Shown here: positions 3,280 through 30,181 of the stretch, one piece after another
Layout: each line of letters opens with the position of its first letter
Position numbering within the stretch: the first letter of the stretch is position 1
Assembly (NCBI GenBank): GCA_965208105.1
Contig: OZ242318.1
Location: 1,152,001-1,216,000 of the forward strand
DNA length: 64,000 bases
Reading direction: 5' to 3'
Origin: Candidatus Latescibacterota bacterium
Lineage (GTDB): Bacteria > Latescibacterota > UBA2968 > UBA8231
Notes under the pieces: model-generated
What the model was told of the DNA's origin: nothing
Databases searched by the model: none
Seen by the model: only the letters and a program-made list of their open reading frames with translations
Position numbers and translations under genes: made by a program

Positions 3280-4979
3280 GTTCGCCCATGCTCCGCCTCT
3301 TCCTCCGCCTCGGCCTGGCCCTCCTCCTGGCCAGCCTGGTGGCCGCCCTGCTGCCGCAGCGCGGAGAAGTGGACGGCTGGAGCCTCTTTCCGCCCCTGGC
3401 TGCCATTCTCGCCTCGGTCCTGACCGGCCGGCTGATCCTGGGACTTTCGGTGGCCATCCTGAGCGGAGCCCTGATCTCGCTGCCCGCTTCCACTCCCTTC
3501 CACGCCCTGCCCTTCGCGGTGCTGCGCCACGCACTCCTCGACTTCGTCTGGATTCCCCTGAAGGACTCCTTCCAGCTCTATATCCTCGGCTTCACTGCAT
3601 CTCTCATCGGCATGGCGCGGGTGGTGTCCTTGGGTGGGGGCGCCCAGGGCATCGCCGAGTTGCTGGCCGCCCGCGCCCAGAGCGCGCGCTCCACCCGGGC
3701 AGCCACCTTCCTGACCGGCATGGCCATCTTCTTCGACGACTACGCCAACACCCTGGTGGTGGGCTCGACCATGCGGCCCATTGCCGACCGCTTCAGAATT
3801 TCGCGGGAAAAACTCGCCTACCTGGTGGATTCCACCGCGGCGCCGGTGGCCGGGGTGGCGGTGATCAGCACCTGGATCGGCTTCGAGGTGGGGCTCTTCG
3901 ACGATGCCATGCGCCAGGTGGGCAGCGGGATCTCGGGCTACGAGCTCTTCTTCCGCGCCCTGCCGGCGCGCTTCTACTGCCTGCTGACCCTGGCCTTCAT
4001 CGCCTTGTCCATCCTGCTGCAGCGCGACTTCGGACCCATGCTCAGGGCCGAGCGCCGCGCCCGCCTGAAGGGCCAGGTGCTGGCCCCGGGGGCCCGCCCT
4101 CTCACCGGCAGGAAGGGCGACGCCCTCGAGGCGGCGCCCGGAGTGCGGGGCCACTGGGCCACGGCCGCCGCGCCGGTGGGCCTGGTGATCGCCGGGGTGC
4201 TGGGGGGAATGCACCTCGACACCTGGAACATCAACGAGGTCGCCGCCTTGCGCCAGGAGCACTCCTTTTTCAGCCGCTCCTACTGGACCGCGGCGTTTTC
4301 CCACGCCGACAACTCCAAGGTGATGTTCCTGGCGGCACTGGCAGGCTCGGCCCTGGCCTTCGCCGTCGCCCTCAGCCGCCGCGATTCGGCGGGCCGCTTT
4401 CCGCTTTCTCCTTGGCTGGTCTTCAGGACCTGGATCAAGGGCATCACCGGATTCTACTACGCCCTGATCATCCTGGTCCTCGCCTGGTCGATCAAGGAGA
4501 CCTGCAAGGCCGTGGACACCGCCGCCTATCTCATCGCTTCGCTGTCGGGATTCCTCGATCCCATTCTGCTCCCGATACTGGTATTCATGCTCGCCGCCCT
4601 GGTGGCCTTTTCCATCGGCACCTCGTGGACGACCATGGCCATCCTCCTGCCCACCATGCTGCCCCTGGCCCATGACATGGGCGGCCTGGCCCTGACCGTC
4701 CTGGTCGCCGCCGCGGTGCTCGACGGCGCCATCTTCGGGGACCACTGCTCCCCCATAAGCGACACCACGGTGCTCTCCAGCATCGCCACTTCCTGCGACC
4801 ACGTCGACCACGTCAAGACCCAGATCCCCTATGCCCTGGCCACCATGGCCACGGCGGCCCTCTGCGGCTACCTGGGCAGCACCCTCCTCTACTCTCCCCT
4901 TCTCGGCCTGCTTCTGGGGACAGCCGTCATCGCGCTGGTTCTCTTTTTCCTGGGAAGAAATTCGGACGCTGAAGCCTGA
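3276..4979 (+). CDS. Na+/H+ antiporter NhaC family protein
   Basis: IFFDDYAN, SREKLAYLVDSTAAP, GTSWTT, GDHCSPISDTT motifs; ATGA overlap with upstream stop. Confidence 0.85.
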   Translation: MSSPMLRLFLRLGLALLLASLVAALLPQRGEVDGWSLFPPLAAILASVLTGRLILGLSVAILSGALISLPASTPFHALPFAVLRHALLDFVWIPLKDSFQLYILGFTASLIGMARVVSLGGGAQGIAELLAARAQSARSTRAATFLTGMAIFFDDYANTLVVGSTMRPIADRFRISREKLAYLVDSTAAPVAGVAVISTWIGFEVGLFDDAMRQVGSGISGYELFFRALPARFYCLLTLAFIALSILLQRDFGPMLRAERRARLKGQVLAPGARPLTGRKGDALEAAPGVRGHWATAAAPVGLVIAGVLGGMHLDTWNINEVAALRQEHSFFSRSYWTAAFSHADNSKVMFLAALAGSALAFAVALSRRDSAGRFPLSPWLVFRTWIKGITGFYYALIILVLAWSIKETCKAVDTAAYLIASLSGFLDPILLPILVFMLAALVAFSIGTSWTTMAILLPTMLPLAHDMGGLALTVLVAAAVLDGAIFGDHCSPISDTTVLSSIATSCDHVDHVKTQIPYALATMATAALCGYLGSTLLYSPLLGLLLGTAVIALVLFFLGRNSDAEA

Positions 4980-9490: not shown

Positions 9491-10498
9491 ATGCAAGCAA
9501 TGAATCGAAAATCCGAAGGGCGGTGCGGTCCCACCATGGCAGAGACCAAGGGTCCAGGAAGGCTGCCGCCCTGGCTCAAGGCCAAGGCCCCCGGAAGCCC
9601 CAACTACCTCGAGCTCAAGCACCTGGTGCGCGGCCTCGAGCTCCACACCGTGTGCGAGAGCGCCCACTGCCCCAATATCGGGGAGTGCTGGAGCCGGCGC
9701 ACGGCCACCTTCATGATCCTGGGGGATATCTGCACCCGCAGCTGCGGCTTTTGCGCCATAAAGACCGGACGGCCCGAATCCCTCGACGAAGATGAGCCCC
9801 ACCGCGTCGCCGCCGCCGTTGCCTACCTGGAGCTGCGTCATGCGGTGATCACCTCGGTCAACCGCGACGAACTTCCCGACGGCGGCGCCCGCATCTTCGC
9901 CCGCACCCTGGAGGAGCTGCACCGCCGCTGCCCGCAAACCACGGTTGAAGTCCTCATCCCGGATTTCAAGGGCAACTGGGAGGCGCTGGAAGCCGTCCTC
10001 GCGGCCGGTCCGGACATCCTCAATCACAACGTCGAAACGGCGCCGCGCCTCTATCCCGTAATGCGCCCCCAGGCTCGCTACGAGCGCTCCCTCGAGCTTC
10101 TGGACCGGGCCCGGAGGGCGGGGCCTGCCCCCACCAAGTCGGGCATCATGCTCGGCGCCGGGGAAAGGAGGGACGAGATTGCCCGCACCATCGGCGACCT
10201 GGCCGCAGTGAACTGCAGCATTCTCACCATCGGACAGTACCTTAGCCCTTCTCCCCGGCACGTCCCCCTTGACCGCTTCGTCCACCCGGACGAGTTCGAG
10301 GAGTGGCGCTCATACGCCCTCGGCCTCGGTTTCCGCCACGTGGAATCCGGCCCCCTGGTGCGCAGCTCCTACCACGCCGAGGAGCAGGTGAGCGACATGC
10401 ATGCCAGGGTCCTTGCGGAAACCCCCGGGGGCCCGGACCTGCCGCCCTCAGCTCCTCTGCAGCAAATCGACACCACCTTCTTCCCGGGAACGCAATAG
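9491..10498 (+). CDS. lipA: lipoyl synthase (start may be ATG 9536)
   Basis: CESAHCPNIGEC, CTRSCGFC, NHNVET, VRSSYHA. Confidence 0.97.
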   Translation: MQAMNRKSEGRCGPTMAETKGPGRLPPWLKAKAPGSPNYLELKHLVRGLELHTVCESAHCPNIGECWSRRTATFMILGDICTRSCGFCAIKTGRPESLDEDEPHRVAAAVAYLELRHAVITSVNRDELPDGGARIFARTLEELHRRCPQTTVEVLIPDFKGNWEALEAVLAAGPDILNHNVETAPRLYPVMRPQARYERSLELLDRARRAGPAPTKSGIMLGAGERRDEIARTIGDLAAVNCSILTIGQYLSPSPRHVPLDRFVHPDEFEEWRSYALGLGFRHVESGPLVRSSYHAEEQVSDMHARVLAETPGGPDLPPSAPLQQIDTTFFPGTQ

Positions 10499-10503
10499 AC
10501 CTG

Positions 10504-11505
10504 ATGAACCTGAGCAAAGAAGCCCTGCCGGCCTATCTGAAGCGCAAAAAGCTGTCACAGAGAGAAGCTCTGACCGTTCGCCAAATCGGCGACGGACAGA
10601 AGAACCTGATCTACCACGTCTCCGACTCGGAGGAAACCTGGCTCATCAAGCAGGCCCTTTCCAGGGTGCAGATCAAGGAGCGCTGGTGGGTGGACCGCCG
10701 CCGTGTCTTCGCCGAGAAGACCTGCATCGAGATCCTGGCGCAGATCCTGCCCCCTGACGTGATTCCGGATATAATCCTGGAAGACCGGACGGACTTCATA
10801 CTGGTCACCACTCCTCCGCCCAAGGACGCGGTGTGGTGGGAGGAGGATTTGAACAGGGGCCGGATCGACCTGCAGATAGCGGTGCAGTGCGGCGAGCTTC
10901 TGGCCACGGTCCACAACGAAACCATCGACAAACCGGATCTCCTCGCCCTATTCAAGGACACCAAGGCCTTCGAGCAGCTCCGTCTCGAACCTTTCTACGG
11001 CAAAGTCGGGCAGGCCTTCCCGGACCTTAAGAAGATCATCGACAATCAGGCCCGGAACCTGCTGAAGAACCGCCGCACCCTGGTTCTGGGGGACCTGCGG
11101 CCGCGCAACGTGTGGATCAACGCGGGCCAGGTCTACCTGGTGGACTTCGCCACCGTCCACTTCGGCAACCCATCCTTCGACCTGGCCCTCTACTCCGCCG
11201 ATCTGTGCATCCGGGCGATGCGCAACAGCATCCAGAAAGCCGCCTATCTGGAAGCGGTCAACGTCTTCTGGAACGCCTATTTCAGGATGGGGGAATACGA
11301 CGGGAAAGAGGAAACGGAAAAAAGCGCGGTGCGCGATCTGGGATGCCTGCTGCTCAGCGCCACCGACGGGCGCCTGCCCACCGCCAACCTGCCCCCGGAG
11401 ACCGAGAACCTGGCGCGCCGCATCGCCCAGAGCCTGCTCTTCACCGAACTCAACCGCATAGAAGACATCACCGAGTTCGTCAACCGCACCCTGATCGACG
11501 GCTAG
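10504..11505 (+). CDS. aminoglycoside-phosphotransferase / methylthioribose-kinase-like protein
   Basis: IGDGQKN loop, IKQA, QLRLEP, GDLRPRN, VDF motifs; ATG 5 nt after lipA stop. Confidence 0.7.
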   Translation: MNLSKEALPAYLKRKKLSQREALTVRQIGDGQKNLIYHVSDSEETWLIKQALSRVQIKERWWVDRRRVFAEKTCIEILAQILPPDVIPDIILEDRTDFILVTTPPPKDAVWWEEDLNRGRIDLQIAVQCGELLATVHNETIDKPDLLALFKDTKAFEQLRLEPFYGKVGQAFPDLKKIIDNQARNLLKNRRTLVLGDLRPRNVWINAGQVYLVDFATVHFGNPSFDLALYSADLCIRAMRNSIQKAAYLEAVNVFWNAYFRMGEYDGKEETEKSAVRDLGCLLLSATDGRLPTANLPPETENLARRIAQSLLFTELNRIEDITEFVNRTLIDG

Positions 11506-25990: not shown

Positions 25991-27154
25991 ATGAAGATCA
26001 AGTCGATCGACCTGGTGAAAATCCAGCGGCCTGCCAGGGCGGCCGGTGCCCGCTCCCGGCGCCGGAGCTGGCAGGCCGGGGACGAGGTCGCCAATCCCAT
26101 GTCCCGCTTCTCGCGCTTCAAGCGCCACCGCAGCCTCTACGCCCCTCGCCGCTGGCCCGGGTTCGGAGTCAAGGTCACCGCCGGAAACGGCGCCTGGGGC
26201 CTGGGCACGGTGATGGGGCGGCCCGCCGCCGCGGTGATCGAGGACGCCTTCGCCCACGTCCTGGAGGGAGAGGACTGCCTCGCCATCGAAAAGCTGTGGG
26301 ACATGATGTTCCGCGTCTCCAAGCCCTTCGGCACCCCGGGCATCGCCACCCTGGCCATGAGCGCGGTGGACCTGGCGCTGTGGGACCTGGCCGGCAAGCT
26401 CCATGGCAAGCCGGTATACGAGCTCATCGGCGGTCCCGCCCGCGACCGCATCTTCGTATACGCCACCGGAAACGACGTGGATTGGTACAGGGAGCTGGGG
26501 TTCAAGGCCTTCAAGCTGGCCCTGCCCCATGGACCGGCAGACGGCCTGGAGGGGATGGAAGAGAACGAGCGGCGGGTGGCCCAGGCCCGGGACATAATCG
26601 GCGACGGAGCCGAGCTCATGCTGGACTGCTACATGGCCCTCGACGTGGACTACGCCGTGCGCCTGGCCGAGCGCCTGCGGCCCTACCGGCTCAGGTGGAT
26701 CGAGGAGTGCCTAATCCCCGAGGACGTGGAGGGCCACATCCAGCTGCGCCGCCGCCTGCCCTGGATGACCCTGGCCGCCGGCGAGCACCTCTACACCCCC
26801 TTCCCCTTCCAGCAGATGATCAAGCACGGCTGCCTCGACATCCTGCAGCCGGACATCCACTGGGCGGGGGGGATGACCGCATGCATCAAGATCTGCCACA
26901 TGGCCGAGGCGGCCGGCCTCCAGGTCATCCTCCACGGCGGCGGCGGTCAGCCCGAAGGACAGCACCTGACCTGGGCCATGTCCAACACCCCCTGGGCGGA
27001 GTACTTCGTCGGCACCGACCCTGGTATTCCCCTGGCGGAGTCGGCCGCCTCCGGAGCCCTGGTTCCCAGCGAAGGTTACATCGAGTTCCGGCCCTGCGGC
27101 CCCGGCTTCGGCCTCGGTATCGAGGAGGAATGGCTGGAGCCCCTGGGGGACTGA
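25991..27154 (+). CDS. mandelate racemase family acid-sugar dehydratase (L-rhamnonate dehydratase-like)
   Basis: VANPMS, KAFK, HGPADG, MLDCYM, WIEE, GEH, QPD. Confidence 0.85.
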   Translation: MKIKSIDLVKIQRPARAAGARSRRRSWQAGDEVANPMSRFSRFKRHRSLYAPRRWPGFGVKVTAGNGAWGLGTVMGRPAAAVIEDAFAHVLEGEDCLAIEKLWDMMFRVSKPFGTPGIATLAMSAVDLALWDLAGKLHGKPVYELIGGPARDRIFVYATGNDVDWYRELGFKAFKLALPHGPADGLEGMEENERRVAQARDIIGDGAELMLDCYMALDVDYAVRLAERLRPYRLRWIEECLIPEDVEGHIQLRRRLPWMTLAAGEHLYTPFPFQQMIKHGCLDILQPDIHWAGGMTACIKICHMAEAAGLQVILHGGGGQPEGQHLTWAMSNTPWAEYFVGTDPGIPLAESAASGALVPSEGYIEFRPCGPGFGLGIEEEWLEPLGD

Positions 27155-27164
27155 CTACCTTCCT

Positions 27165-28355
27165 TCACCAACCCTTCCAGCTGCCGTCGGCGTGGCGGTA
27201 CTGGCGGTAGCCCATGGGCTCGAGGTTCATGGCGGCGACGTCCGCTTCCTTCACCTCGATCCCCAGGCCCGGCTGGTCGCTGACCGGGATGTAGCCGTCC
27301 TCGATGGCCATGTCGTGCTCGGCGTAGAGGCCGAAGCGGTCGAAGTAGGTCGCCACCATCTCCTGGATCAGGAAATTCGGGATGGAAGCGACGGCATGCA
27401 GGGTCGCCGCCGTTCCGATGGGCCCGGCCACGTTGTGGGGCGCCATCAGCATCTGCTGGCGGTCGGCGCTCCTGGCAATCTCGCAAAACTCTCCGATGCC
27501 CAGGCAATGGGTGATGTCCGGCTGCAGGAAGGCGCATGCCCGGCGCCGGATCAGGGGGTCGAACTCGGCCACCGAGAACAGTTTCTCCCCCGTGGCGATG
27601 GGGACCGGGCTGCGCCGCGAAACCTCCAGCAGGGCCTCCACCGAACCGACCTTGACCGGCTCTTCGAGGAACATGGGAGAGTAGACGGCAACCCGGCGGG
27701 CGAACTCGAGGCCGAGCTCGGGGATGGGACTGCCGTGGGCGTCGAGCAGGATGACGCCATGGGGCCCCATGGCCTCCCGCGCCGCGGCCACGCACTCGAT
27801 ACTGCGCTCGATGGCGGCCATGTCCATGGGGTCGCGGCGCGACTCCAGGGGATTGCCCTTCACCCCGGCGAAGCCCTTGTCGATCCAGCGCTTGGCGGTG
27901 GCGGCAGCCTCCTCGGGGGAGCTCTCCACCAGCCCGCCGCTGGCATATACCCGGACCCGGTCGCGGCGCTTGCCGCCGAGGATGGTGTGGACGGGCACAC
28001 CCCAGGCCTTGCCGGCTATGTCGTAGAGGGCCATGTTGATCGCGGCGACGGCGGTGCCGACCACGGGACCGCCCCTCCAGGGGGAGCGCCGGCTCACGTC
28101 GTCGGTGAGGGCATCCACCTGGGTCGGGTCGCGCCCCAGCAGCAGGGGGACCAACTGCTGGAGCAGGACATCCACCGGCCCGACGAGCCATTCGCCGCTG
28201 CCGTCGCCCCAGCCGCTGATGCCGGCGTCGGTCTCGAGCTTGAGAAAGAGCCAGCTCTTGGTGGTGCTGCACAGCAGCTCGCCGGTGCCGGGGTCGCGGA
28301 TCTCCTGCCCCGTGGGTACGGAGAAGGGATAGGTTTTGACCGCGGTGATCTTCAT
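27165..28355 (-). CDS. mandelate racemase family dehydratase (galactonate dehydratase-like)
   Basis: WLFLKLETDAGISGWG, DAHG, FLEEP, ATGEK, QPD, APHN. Confidence 0.85.
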   Translation of the reverse strand: MKITAVKTYPFSVPTGQEIRDPGTGELLCSTTKSWLFLKLETDAGISGWGDGSGEWLVGPVDVLLQQLVPLLLGRDPTQVDALTDDVSRRSPWRGGPVVGTAVAAINMALYDIAGKAWGVPVHTILGGKRRDRVRVYASGGLVESSPEEAAATAKRWIDKGFAGVKGNPLESRRDPMDMAAIERSIECVAAAREAMGPHGVILLDAHGSPIPELGLEFARRVAVYSPMFLEEPVKVGSVEALLEVSRRSPVPIATGEKLFSVAEFDPLIRRRACAFLQPDITHCLGIGEFCEIARSADRQQMLMAPHNVAGPIGTAATLHAVASIPNFLIQEMVATYFDRFGLYAEHDMAIEDGYIPVSDQPGLGIEVKEADVAAMNLEPMGYRQYRHADGSWKGW

Positions 28356-28409
28356 GGGACCCACCTGGGGGACCCGGCCCCTGCGAGCACCGCTGCCTCT
28401 CCTTCCAAT

Positions 28410-28694
28410 CTACTCATCTCCGCTCTCCTCCCCCTTTGCGGCCAGGTGGTCCTTCATCGCGGCCACCACCCCATCGTCGTCGGGACTCGAGGACACGAGG
28501 GCGGCGAATCCTTCCTCATCCATCTTCACTTCCTCCAGGAAGCTCTGGTCGGCCCCTCAGAAGTAGACGTAGTCGCCGAGACGGCCCTCCTGATAGGCGC
28601 GGACCTTGTCGGTTATGCGCGCCAGCCAGTGCATTTCTCCGATGATCATGCCGCGGGCGCGGGGTTTGAAATCCAGAACCTGTGAATCACTCAT
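28410..28694 (-). CDS. DUF5069-like small protein with in-frame TGA (candidate selenoprotein), not in ORF track
   Basis: RBS GAGGAGGAG; ATG overlaps upstream stop; MSDSQVLDFKPRARGMIIGEMHWLARITDKVRAYQEGRLGDYVYF-TGA-GADQSFLEEVKMDEEGFAALVSSSPDDDGVVAAMKDHLAAKGEESGDE-TAG. Confidence 0.75.
28528..28543 (-). promoter_or_regulatory. candidate bacterial SECIS hairpin
   Basis: GCUUCC-UGGA-GGAAGU, +14 to +29 after UGA 28557-28559; loop starts at +20 with G at loop position 2. Confidence 0.55.
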
Positions 28695-29814
28695 GGCGAA
28701 TCTCCTCCTCTTCAAGGGATACCAGCTCGTTGAACCGAGCTCTGAACTCCGTGGTCAATGAAACGTCGCTCAATGCGGCGGTGAGGGCGCCGGCAATCTG
28801 CTTCAGGCGCCGACGCGGCCCCTGCCAGGCCTGCAGAAGCGCGGAATGGTGGTGATCGGACCGCCCTTCCAGCGCCTCCAGGAGCAGGGCCGCCGCATTC
28901 AGGTGAAAGACGATGTGATGGCCGTCCAGGGCCTGGGCCCGGTCCCCGGGGTCCCGCGCCGCGGATGCATACCGGCGCAGGGCGTCCCGGTCCAGCAGGC
29001 TGGTGAAGCTCCCGTGCGGACGGCCGGCGCCCATGCAGGCGGTATACTGGACCAGGCGGCGCTCGGTCCAGTCCCAGCCGATCTTGGCGAACTCTATGAA
29101 GCTCAGGCGGCTGGACGGCGGATCTATGACGATGTTGCGCGCGTTGTAGTCGGTGGTTCCGAGGGCGGGGCCGCGGGCGCAGAGCCGGCTGAGTATTTCG
29201 TCGAGCAGGGAGCGGCAGCGCGCCGCCCCGGGGGCGCCTGATCCGCCATGGAGGCGCAGGATGCGCTCCAGGCCCTGGCGCGCCCGCAGGCCGGCCTGCT
29301 CCCAGGCGCGCCGCAGGTGGGACACGCCGCCCGCCGGGCATACCAGCGGCTCCAGCAGGCGCCTGTTTTCGCCCAGGACCTCCTCGATGCGGCAAAGACC
29401 CGCGACGGCCCGGCGGGTGCAACCTGAGGCGCCGGCCGCGCCCCTCTCCTGGACCAGGTCGTCCAGGGTGTGCGAGCCGCAATGTTCGAAGAAGACGAAG
29501 CTGGTCTCCGCGTCCAGGCCCAGCAGCCTCGGCACCGGGCAAGCCCGGGCCCCCAGCAGACCGAGAACCACCTGCTCCACTTCAAGCAGGTCGTAGAGCC
29601 GGCCGCGGGTGTGGACCCCGAAGAGCTGGAACTTGGCCACCAGCATTTGCCGCCCCTCCAGAAGAACTTCCCAGACGTGCGGAGCCAGGGGCGCGACGCC
29701 CTCCACCCGGGGTCCACCCGGCAGCAGTGACGGCGCCCGCGCCCGCAGGTAGGCCTCCGGGCTGGGCCAGCTGCGGCGGTCGTCGCCTGCTCGGGGCTTC
29801 TCACGAACCCGCAT
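28687..29814 (-). CDS. phosphotransferase/kinase-like protein
   Basis: VAK, PVPRLLG, FEHCG..TL, DYNARN, IEF motifs of APH/choline kinase fold. Confidence 0.6.
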   Translation of the reverse strand: MRVREKPRAGDDRRSWPSPEAYLRARAPSLLPGGPRVEGVAPLAPHVWEVLLEGRQMLVAKFQLFGVHTRGRLYDLLEVEQVVLGLLGARACPVPRLLGLDAETSFVFFEHCGSHTLDDLVQERGAAGASGCTRRAVAGLCRIEEVLGENRRLLEPLVCPAGGVSHLRRAWEQAGLRARQGLERILRLHGGSGAPGAARCRSLLDEILSRLCARGPALGTTDYNARNIVIDPPSSRLSFIEFAKIGWDWTERRLVQYTACMGAGRPHGSFTSLLDRDALRRYASAARDPGDRAQALDGHHIVFHLNAAALLLEALEGRSDHHHSALLQAWQGPRRRLKQIAGALTAALSDVSLTTEFRARFNELVSLEEEEIRHE

Positions 29815-30181
29815 GGTCGAAGACGATGACCTGGGCGGTGATCTTGCCGGCCTGGTTGTTGTAGTCGGGATTTTCGTTCATGGCGAAGTGCAGGATGCCG
29901 TCACCGTCGGCGATGAAATCGTGGCGGCTTCCCACCGCGAATGGATTGCCCGAGCCGACGCGGGCGATCAGGGCGCCGACGTTGGCCCCGGAGAGGAGAT
30001 ATCCAGTTCCGGCCGGGAGGTTGTAGACCCCGTCGGCGCCGCACCAGACGATCTGGTTGCGCATGTCCGGGGACCACACGTCCTCCGCGTCGATGACCAC
30101 CCTCTGGCCTTTTCGCAGGCGGATCAGGGTGTCCTGCCACTCGGAGCTGGGACGCACCGTGCGCGAAATGGTTACTGCCAC
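29801..30181 (-). CDS. LecA/PA-IL-like lectin domain protein
   Basis: WQDT..G.RVVIDA, GADG, GALIARVG, LHFAMNE...NQAGKITA; GTG start after GGAG RBS. Confidence 0.6.
   Translation of the reverse strand: MAVTISRTVRPSSEWQDTLIRLRKGQRVVIDAEDVWSPDMRNQIVWCGADGVYNLPAGTGYLLSGANVGALIARVGSGNPFAVGSRHDFIADGDGILHFAMNENPDYNNQAGKITAQVIVFDHAGS

Follow-up and report, generated by a model that had tools for sequence, protein, structure and literature searches.

In E. coli, fdhF is the textbook selenoprotein gene, with its SECIS hairpin located inside the coding sequence. When homologs exchange selenocysteine (Sec) and cysteine (Cys) at a position, this classically marks a catalytic nucleophile or a redox centre. 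Nine new families, including a DUF523 protein and the hypothetical proteins DG, DW and DF, are presented in the part of the deep-Sep paper that was available to us (PMC12013277), and Table 1 of a review from May 2026 lists 119 prokaryotic selenoprotein families with their domain identifiers (PMC13188914). DUF5069 (PF16798) is absent from all of that table (PMC13188914) and from the nine new families as given in the available part of the deep-Sep paper, whose families were predicted, like the gene described here, from a Cys/TGA pair, TGA-containing homologs and a SECIS-like hairpin (PMC12013277). In addition, our literature search found no mention of "DUF5069" or "PF16798", the term "3OMD" returned only unrelated uses of the word, and searches for selenoproteins in combination with Latescibacteria, sponge or Poribacteria returned nothing relevant. 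Here, we analysed a window of 64,000 nucleotides from a Candidatus Latescibacterota bacterium (contig OZ242318.1, positions 1,152,001 to 1,216,000 of the forward strand), in which a short minus-strand gene of the DUF5069 family carries an in-frame UGA. An earlier sequence-only reading of this window had proposed the gene as a candidate selenoprotein.

A short DUF5069 gene with a single in-frame UGA

The features of the locus are collected in Table 1. The gene starts with an ATG at 28694-28692, downstream of a ribosome-binding site, and shares 8 nt with the upstream gene, whose TGA stop is at 28689-28687. Its frame of 94 codons is interrupted by only one TGA, at codon 46, after which 48 more sense codons run to a TAG at 28412-28410. 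The sequence-only reading had described the same arrangement, namely a strong ribosome-binding site, an ATG overlapping the upstream stop and a frame broken only at codon 46, and we found each of these elements in the sequence exactly where it had been placed.

Table 1. Features of the DUF5069 locus, with positions in the 64,000-nt window.
Feature	Position	Strand	Basis
Short-form DUF5069 coding sequence, predicted selenoprotein of 94 residues	28410..28694	-	Translation with TGA as U; Pfam DUF5069 match across the TGA; start Met shared by orthologs
UGA codon 46, predicted to be read as selenocysteine	28557..28559	-	TGA/Cys column in orthologs and metagenome loci; contigs of other DNA runs
Ribosome-binding site GAGGAGGAG	28702..28710	-	Direct reading of the sequence
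SECIS-like hairpin	28528..28543	-	RNAalifold; covariation; synonymous sites
Upstream gene, 375 aa, divergent APH-fold small-molecule kinase	28687..29814	-	Fold match; Pfam matches of orthologs
First cassette gene, 126 aa, no Pfam match	29801..30181	-	Same-strand conservation in 25 loci

When the frame was translated with TGA as Sec, the product matched Pfam DUF5069 with an E value of 1.2e-13 and 51.9 bits, above the cut-off of 27, and the match spanned residues 11-89, i.e. both sides of the TGA. A six-frame search with the same family gave 46.3 bits, with one TGA inside the match. The identification of the family, which had been made from its motif, therefore holds, and the motif given was essentially right as well; what it had left out is a branch of the family with Ser at the Cys column (see below). 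No NCBIfam model matched the product at E ≤ 0.1. The full DUF5069 domain is not present: the match covers profile positions 4-82 of 133 and about 50 C-terminal residues are missing. Since the protein ends after 94 residues and matches only this part of the profile, we filed it as a short-form relative of DUF5069, within a subfamily whose members are 81-95 aa long.

The residues around the predicted Sec46 follow the pattern Y-x-[FY]-[PF]-U-[GPA]-A-D. In the ortholog alignment, invariant columns are found on both sides of the UGA, with A48, D49, F52, L53, F63 and D73 after it, and five basic residues (R12, R14, R26, K30 and R32) are invariant as well. The same alignment has no second conserved Cys and no conserved CxxU-type motif.

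TGA and Cys occupy the same column in relatives and metagenomes

Searching 60 related genomes and the source genome gave 51 orthologs, with TGA in 41 and Cys in 10 at one and the same column. A scan of 168 genomes of the phylum found an ortholog in 119, with one TGA in 104 and no stop in the other 15; ten of these 15 were checked and all ten have Cys. All 119 orthologs belong to four families of one class, and no ortholog was found in 36 genomes from ten other families of the phylum. An independent scan of metagenomes yielded 80 loci, 65 with TGA and 15 with Cys. This search used two patterns, one of which required Cys, so the counts are biased against TGA. The Cys/TGA pairs that the sequence-only reading had proposed to look for at this position are present both among the 51 orthologs and among the metagenome loci. 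The genomes and samples that hold the gene are mostly sponge and marine metagenomes. The family would be a new entry among the known selenoproteins, from candidate phyla that occur largely in marine and sponge-associated samples.

Of the 120 best short homologs in the protein databases, 108 have Cys and 12 have Trp at this column. The entries with Trp group with the TGA subclades, and one of them is nearly identical to a TGA locus, so these proteins (P0073, P0078, P0080, P0085, P0086, P0093, P0096, P0098, P0099, P0103, P0109 and P0120) appear to be TGA genes that were called with a translation table in which TGA is Trp. Among the 150 database representatives listed, the match of 11 stops at profile position 45, which is also the last residue of the protein. 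Annotation therefore misses the family systematically, with entries that either end at residue 45 or carry a false Trp.

If the TGA were a true stop, the locus would be a pseudogene or would encode a 45-residue peptide only, and the downstream frame would be untranslated. The 11 entries that end at position 45 agree with this reading. However, the same TGA recurs in most orthologs of the phylum (104 of 119) and in 65 of the 80 metagenome loci, the 48 downstream codons are open and conserved, including the six invariant residues named above, the Cys forms are full length, and there is no conserved restart codon after the TGA. The ratio of nonsynonymous to synonymous changes is also well below 1 after the TGA: the median dN/dS over 222 moderately diverged pairs (of 820) was 0.32 for the 38 codons after the TGA compared to 0.13 before it, and between the source genome and one relative (G001) the part after the TGA has a dN of 0.046 and a dS of 0.414. 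Judged by these ratios, purifying selection acts on the part after the TGA, as the proposal of the sequence-only reading requires. We consider a true stop highly improbable, and the 11 short entries are gene calls cut at the TGA.

An error in the assembly or in sequencing has next to no chance of explaining the TGA, and we found nothing in its favour. Contigs from three DNA runs of three other studies cover 28557-28559 without any difference, one of them with a synonymous change in codon 76, and the same codon is found in 40 other genomes of the ortholog set. The support from other DNA on which the proposal depended is thus in place. For transcription there is weak evidence from a metatranscriptome contig (X16) of 169 nt, which covers 28531-28699 and spans the TGA; it comes from one library, which may contain DNA.

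To follow the exchange at this position, we built a tree of 131 sequences (106 with Sec and 25 with Cys) in which the column itself was left out. The tree requires at least 6 changes between Sec and Cys, and its starred branches force at least 4, which shows that the two residues have switched repeatedly.

In the wider DUF5069 family, 156 of 170 domains fill this column, 112 of them with Cys and 32 with Ser; the remaining 12 cells hold other residues, Trp occurring once. The source genome has a paralog of its own with Ser: a 445-aa frame at C1:4775410-4776744 (loci L012-L014) contains three tandem full-length DUF5069 domains, each with Y-G-x-D-S-G-x-D, in which Ser takes the place of Cys or Sec. 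Because Ser is found in 32 of the 156 cells and in this paralog, the residue is not essential for every DUF5069 protein. The triple-domain architecture recurs in relatives with frames of about 430-500 aa. Two weak DUF5069 matches with one in-frame TGA were also seen in longer paralogs, at G017:C322:26862-27065 (E 1.8e-4) and G008:C1:2155843-2156022 (E 1.3e-5).

A hairpin after the UGA is kept in the Sec forms only

Downstream of the UGA, the RNA can form the hairpin GCUUCC-UGGA-GGAAGU that the sequence-only reading had pointed out, with the 5′ arm at 28543-28538, the UGGA loop at 28537-28534 and the 3′ arm at 28533-28528. The hairpin begins after a 13-nt spacer, and its loop, which has G in second place, starts 19 nt past the end of the UGA. 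The general bacterial SECIS model has a distance of 16-37 nt from the UGA and a G early in the apical loop, and the stem-loop found here, shortly 3′ of the UGA, agrees with both.

The hairpin is shared by relatives. In all 41 Sec forms, RNAalifold predicts a common helix (columns 16-22 with 27-33) with a UGGA loop and a stem of 6-7 bp. Among the 37 distinct Sec forms, 94.2% of the alignment cells pair, compared to 24-65% for slid partners, or 46-69% in the comparison that takes in both sets of Sec forms. At pair 18-31, 22 of these sequences have CG and 15 have GC, pair 17-32 is AU, GU or GC, and neither pair is ever unpaired; the outermost pair, 16-33, fails to form in 14 of the 37, including the source sequence. 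When the metagenome set was combined with the source sequence (53 distinct sequences), 92.7% of the cells paired, pair 18-31 was CG in 37 and GC in 16, and pair 17-32 was GU, GC, AU or UA, with 2 unpaired. In contrast, pairing in the ten Cys forms was 75.7%, which is not above that of shuffles, and pair 18-31 was unpaired in 7 of the 10. The hairpin is thus kept with covariation in the Sec forms only and has decayed in the Cys forms.

The hairpin sits within the codons for S-F-L-E-E-V, and its core UUCCUGGAGGAA is almost invariant. Covariation is limited to the three outer pairs because this core also encodes F-L-E-E, and since FLEE is a conserved motif of the protein, part of the conservation of the hairpin is at the protein level. 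For this reason we compared synonymous sites between 81 distinct Sec forms and 21 distinct Cys forms. The Leu codon is CTG in all 81 Sec forms, whereas the Cys forms have CTG (13), CTC (7) or CTA (1). The Phe codon is TTC in 77 of 80 Sec forms compared to 12 TTC and 9 TTT in the Cys forms, and the second Glu codon is GAA in 64 and GAG in 4 of the Sec forms compared to 5 GAA and 8 GAG in the Cys forms. It is thus in the Sec forms, and not in the Cys forms, that the synonymous sites of the hairpin are frozen.

At the protein level, the residues on either side of FLEE co-vary as well, as R/S...V/A, K...L or M...H. Because the compensatory changes in the stem carry over to these amino acids, the RNA shapes the protein, and the locus offers a clean case in which an RNA structure, the SECIS stem, has influenced a protein sequence.

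Taken as a single sequence, the hairpin is no stabler than chance (z = -0.01; 89 of 200 dinucleotide shuffles were as good), and this is the other point in favour of a true stop. A crude scan of the whole genome for TGA, hairpin and open frame returned 196 places, among them the DUF5069 gene and selD, and is therefore too unspecific to define the selenoproteome. For both reasons, the case rests on comparative evidence and not on the hairpin by itself. An Rfam scan of 28300-28800 found no matching family and returned two rows at chance level.

Two other places in the window pass the filter of TGA, hairpin and open frame, at 3715-3984 on the plus strand and at 10313-10642 on the minus strand; given the 196 places genome-wide, both are probably due to chance. 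Outside the window, the hairpin scan of the source genome found a unit of about 327 nt about a dozen times with identical frame lengths and an identical hairpin (e.g. C1:182255-182581, 1049920-1050246 and 2090637-2090963), which is probably a repeated or mobile element.

The Sec machinery accompanies the TGA form

The source genome encodes SelA (469 bits) and SelB (a 709-aa frame with a wing domain of 63 bits), both without internal stops, and a tRNA-Sec (69.6 bits) for which ARAGORN gives the anticodon tca (UCA). Its SelD (369.5 bits; C1:3653826-3654752, locus L017) has one in-frame TGA of its own and is itself a selenoprotein, with the TGA at the known Sec site (...CGG-U-ASK...) followed by a 13-nt spacer and a 7-bp stem with a GGAA loop. 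The machinery that a Sec-containing product implies is thus present in full in the source genome, with selA, selB, tRNA-Sec(UCA) and selD.

Among the ortholog-bearing genomes, we detected SelA in 40 of the 41 that carry the TGA form and in 7 of the 10 that carry the Cys form. The one exception among the TGA forms (G003) is a genome of 81% completeness in 810 contigs that is without SelA and the SelB wing and has a SelD fragment with TGA. Three genomes (G006, G020 and G022) are without SelA, the SelB wing and SelD, and all three carry the Cys form, which shows that Cys accompanies the loss of the Sec machinery.

These results also bear on whether the UGA could be read as another amino acid. A near-cognate or suppressor tRNA for Trp, Cys or Arg might read through the UGA, with the hairpin merely stimulating the event; the sequence alone cannot identify the inserted residue, and the 12 database entries with Trp at the column would fit such a reading. 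However, as described above, those entries fall in TGA subclades, one of them being nearly identical to a TGA locus, and are then calls made with a table in which TGA is Trp. The natural alternative at this position is Cys, and Trp fills only one of the 156 cells in the wider family. Moreover, the TGA form co-occurs with the Sec machinery while the three genomes without the machinery carry Cys, and selD of the same genome has a similarly placed hairpin. We regard read-through by a tRNA other than tRNA-Sec as very unlikely.

It is exceedingly improbable that these organisms assign an amino acid to TGA in their genetic code, as NCBI tables 4 and 25 do. Some pipelines did translate genes of the family in that way, but TGA is used as an ordinary stop: the neighbouring kinase gene ends in it, and so do nine genes among the 41 Sec forms and five among the 10 Cys forms. 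In addition, the SelA and SelB frames are free of internal stops, and the single one in SelD falls on its known Sec site. The usage of stop codons thus refutes this reading.

Taken together, the Cys/TGA column, the hairpin, the Sec machinery and the selection all favour the Sec-containing DUF5069 protein that had been proposed for the locus. It is comparison among relatives that brings out the putative recoding signal, the exchange of Sec and Cys and the selection on the downstream half, and on these comparisons the gene is very probably a selenoprotein gene whose UGA is decoded as Sec by the ordinary bacterial mechanism. In this mechanism, SelD would make selenophosphate and SelA would convert Ser-tRNA-Sec to Sec-tRNA-Sec. 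SelB would bind the hairpin inside the coding sequence and deliver Sec-tRNA-Sec to the ribosome at UGA codon 46, and the predicted product would be a 94-residue mini DUF5069 domain with Sec46.

A predicted small helical fold with residue 46 at a helix cap

An AlphaFold2 model of the selenoprotein, made with an alignment of 34 rows, has a pLDDT of 79.6 and is mostly helical, with a beta hairpin at 17-22 and helices at 24-36, 47-55, 60-69 and 73-88. In this model, residue 46 caps helix 47-55 at its N-terminus. With a profile of 34 orthologs, one solved structure was found, 3omd (E 3.6e-14), which was released in 2010, and the Cys in its YTYNCPLDQ segment aligns to the TGA column. The model and 3omd also agree in structure, with Foldseek giving an E value of 6.6e-3, a TMq of 0.76 and an rmsd of 1.5 Å over 78 columns, and VIA wide giving a Z of 11.5 and an rmsd of 1.6 Å over 80 residues. 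These two fold searches found no relative besides 3omd (the next Foldseek match had an E value of 5.2 and the next VIA wide match a Z of 4.0), and neither detected a thioredoxin-like or other known redox fold for the model, a result that does not by itself make the fold new.

The exchange between Sec and Cys marks position 46 and its helix and provides the first functional handle on DUF5069. Residue 46 would be the nucleophilic or redox-active centre of the family, and the invariant R12, R14, R26, K30 and R32 would bind an anionic substrate or partner. A nucleophile at the N-terminus of a helix beside conserved Arg and Lys, as the model places it, would fit an anion-binding, reactive selenol or thiol centre. 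Since the alignment has no second Cys and no CxxU-type motif and the model has no thioredoxin-like fold, a redox role is only one possibility.

The gene is coupled to an APH-fold kinase in one clade

In family f1, the gene closes a three-gene cassette on one strand, in the order of a 126-aa protein, a 345-375-aa protein and the selenoprotein, whose stops and starts mostly overlap or lie within a few bases of each other. In the window, the two upstream genes occupy 28687-30181 on the minus strand, and the cassette occurs with both the Sec and the Cys form. Of the 51 genome loci, 27 have the middle gene directly upstream on the same strand and 25 have the first gene. Of the 60 metagenome loci with enough flanking sequence, 31 (23 with TGA and 8 with Cys) have the middle gene in this place and 29 lack the linkage, so that about half of the metagenome loci show the arrangement. 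In families f2 and f4, a homolog of the middle gene is present but unlinked, and an RsmD-like methyltransferase is found upstream instead.

The 375-aa protein of the source genome matched no Pfam family, while 3 of its 18 orthologs matched APH (PF01636), with a best E value of 1.4e-5. A profile search of the PDB sequences with this protein gave nothing meaningful; the Atlas gave APH as the lead. Its AlphaFold2 model has a pLDDT of 91.4, and the top Foldseek matches are all APH-type kinases (E 3.5e-7 and weaker, TM about 0.5), with 312 chains at E ≤ 0.001, including a putative aminoglycoside phosphotransferase, corramycin phosphotransferase, PsiK and N-acetylhexosamine kinase. K61, E80, D222, N227 and E241 are invariant in the 18 orthologs, and by our own reading they include the Lys and Glu of the kinase motifs and the Asp and Asn of the catalytic loop. 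The label of kinase, under which the sequence-only reading had entered this gene, is thus supported by the fold, which is bilobal and protein-kinase-like.

A kinase homolog in another genome (G057) was considered as a second selenoprotein and rejected: its TGA is a plain stop, and Cys92, which is invariant in the kinases linked to the selenoprotein gene, is Ala there. For the 126-aa protein, the Atlas lead was PA-IL, with a 17% share of one cluster, a weak indication that it possibly has a PA-IL-like fold.

The other genes nearby include two similar to MR/MLE sugar-acid dehydratases as well as PIG-L, a class III aminotransferase, hydantoinase A/B, PhyH and MnmG. The two MR/MLE (enolase superfamily) dehydratase-type genes are adjacent, on opposite strands, at 25991-28364, and the one beside the selenoprotein gene scored best as galactonate dehydratase, below the cut-off of that model.

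In one clade, then, the selenoprotein gene is translationally coupled to an APH-fold kinase, and because of this coupling we infer that the two proteins work together there. A broader proposal, which we put forward as unlikely and speculative, is that DUF5069 might be an unrecognised class of selenol or thiol enzymes on a small helical fold and that, in the clade with overlapping genes, the mini DUF5069 protein might serve the APH-fold kinase as a dedicated partner, whether by acting as its redox switch or by taking on its phosphorylated product as the next enzyme. If this were true, the mini DUF5069 protein and the kinase would correspond, in split form, to the kinase-fold selenoprotein SelO.

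Comparison with known selenoproteins

Within the limits of the sources compared here, the short DUF5069 proteins would be a new selenoprotein family that uses the known mechanism of Sec insertion. The BSepDB list could include the family, and the families of Haft and Tolstoy (2025) were covered through the review table only. The finding should be of moderate to good interest to selenium biology, to genome annotation and to work on DUF5069.

Most characterised selenoproteins contain CxxU- or UxxC-type motifs and a thioredoxin-like fold (PMC13188914), and the DUF5069 selenoprotein differs from them in having neither. The only solved DUF5069 member, 3omd, is an uncharacterised protein of 145 aa from Leptospirillum rubarum that has Cys where the source protein would have Sec; the source protein is a short form from the 81-95 aa group and stops about 50 residues short of the end of the domain. 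In the same genome, selD resembles the DUF5069 gene in having a UGA, a 13-nt spacer and a stem-loop with G in the loop, and the two differ in stem and loop, with 7 bp and GGAA in selD compared to 6 bp and UGGA in the DUF5069 gene. Like other bacterial selenoprotein genes, the DUF5069 gene would depend on selA, selB, selC and selD and has homologs with Cys; what sets it apart is the protein family to which it belongs.
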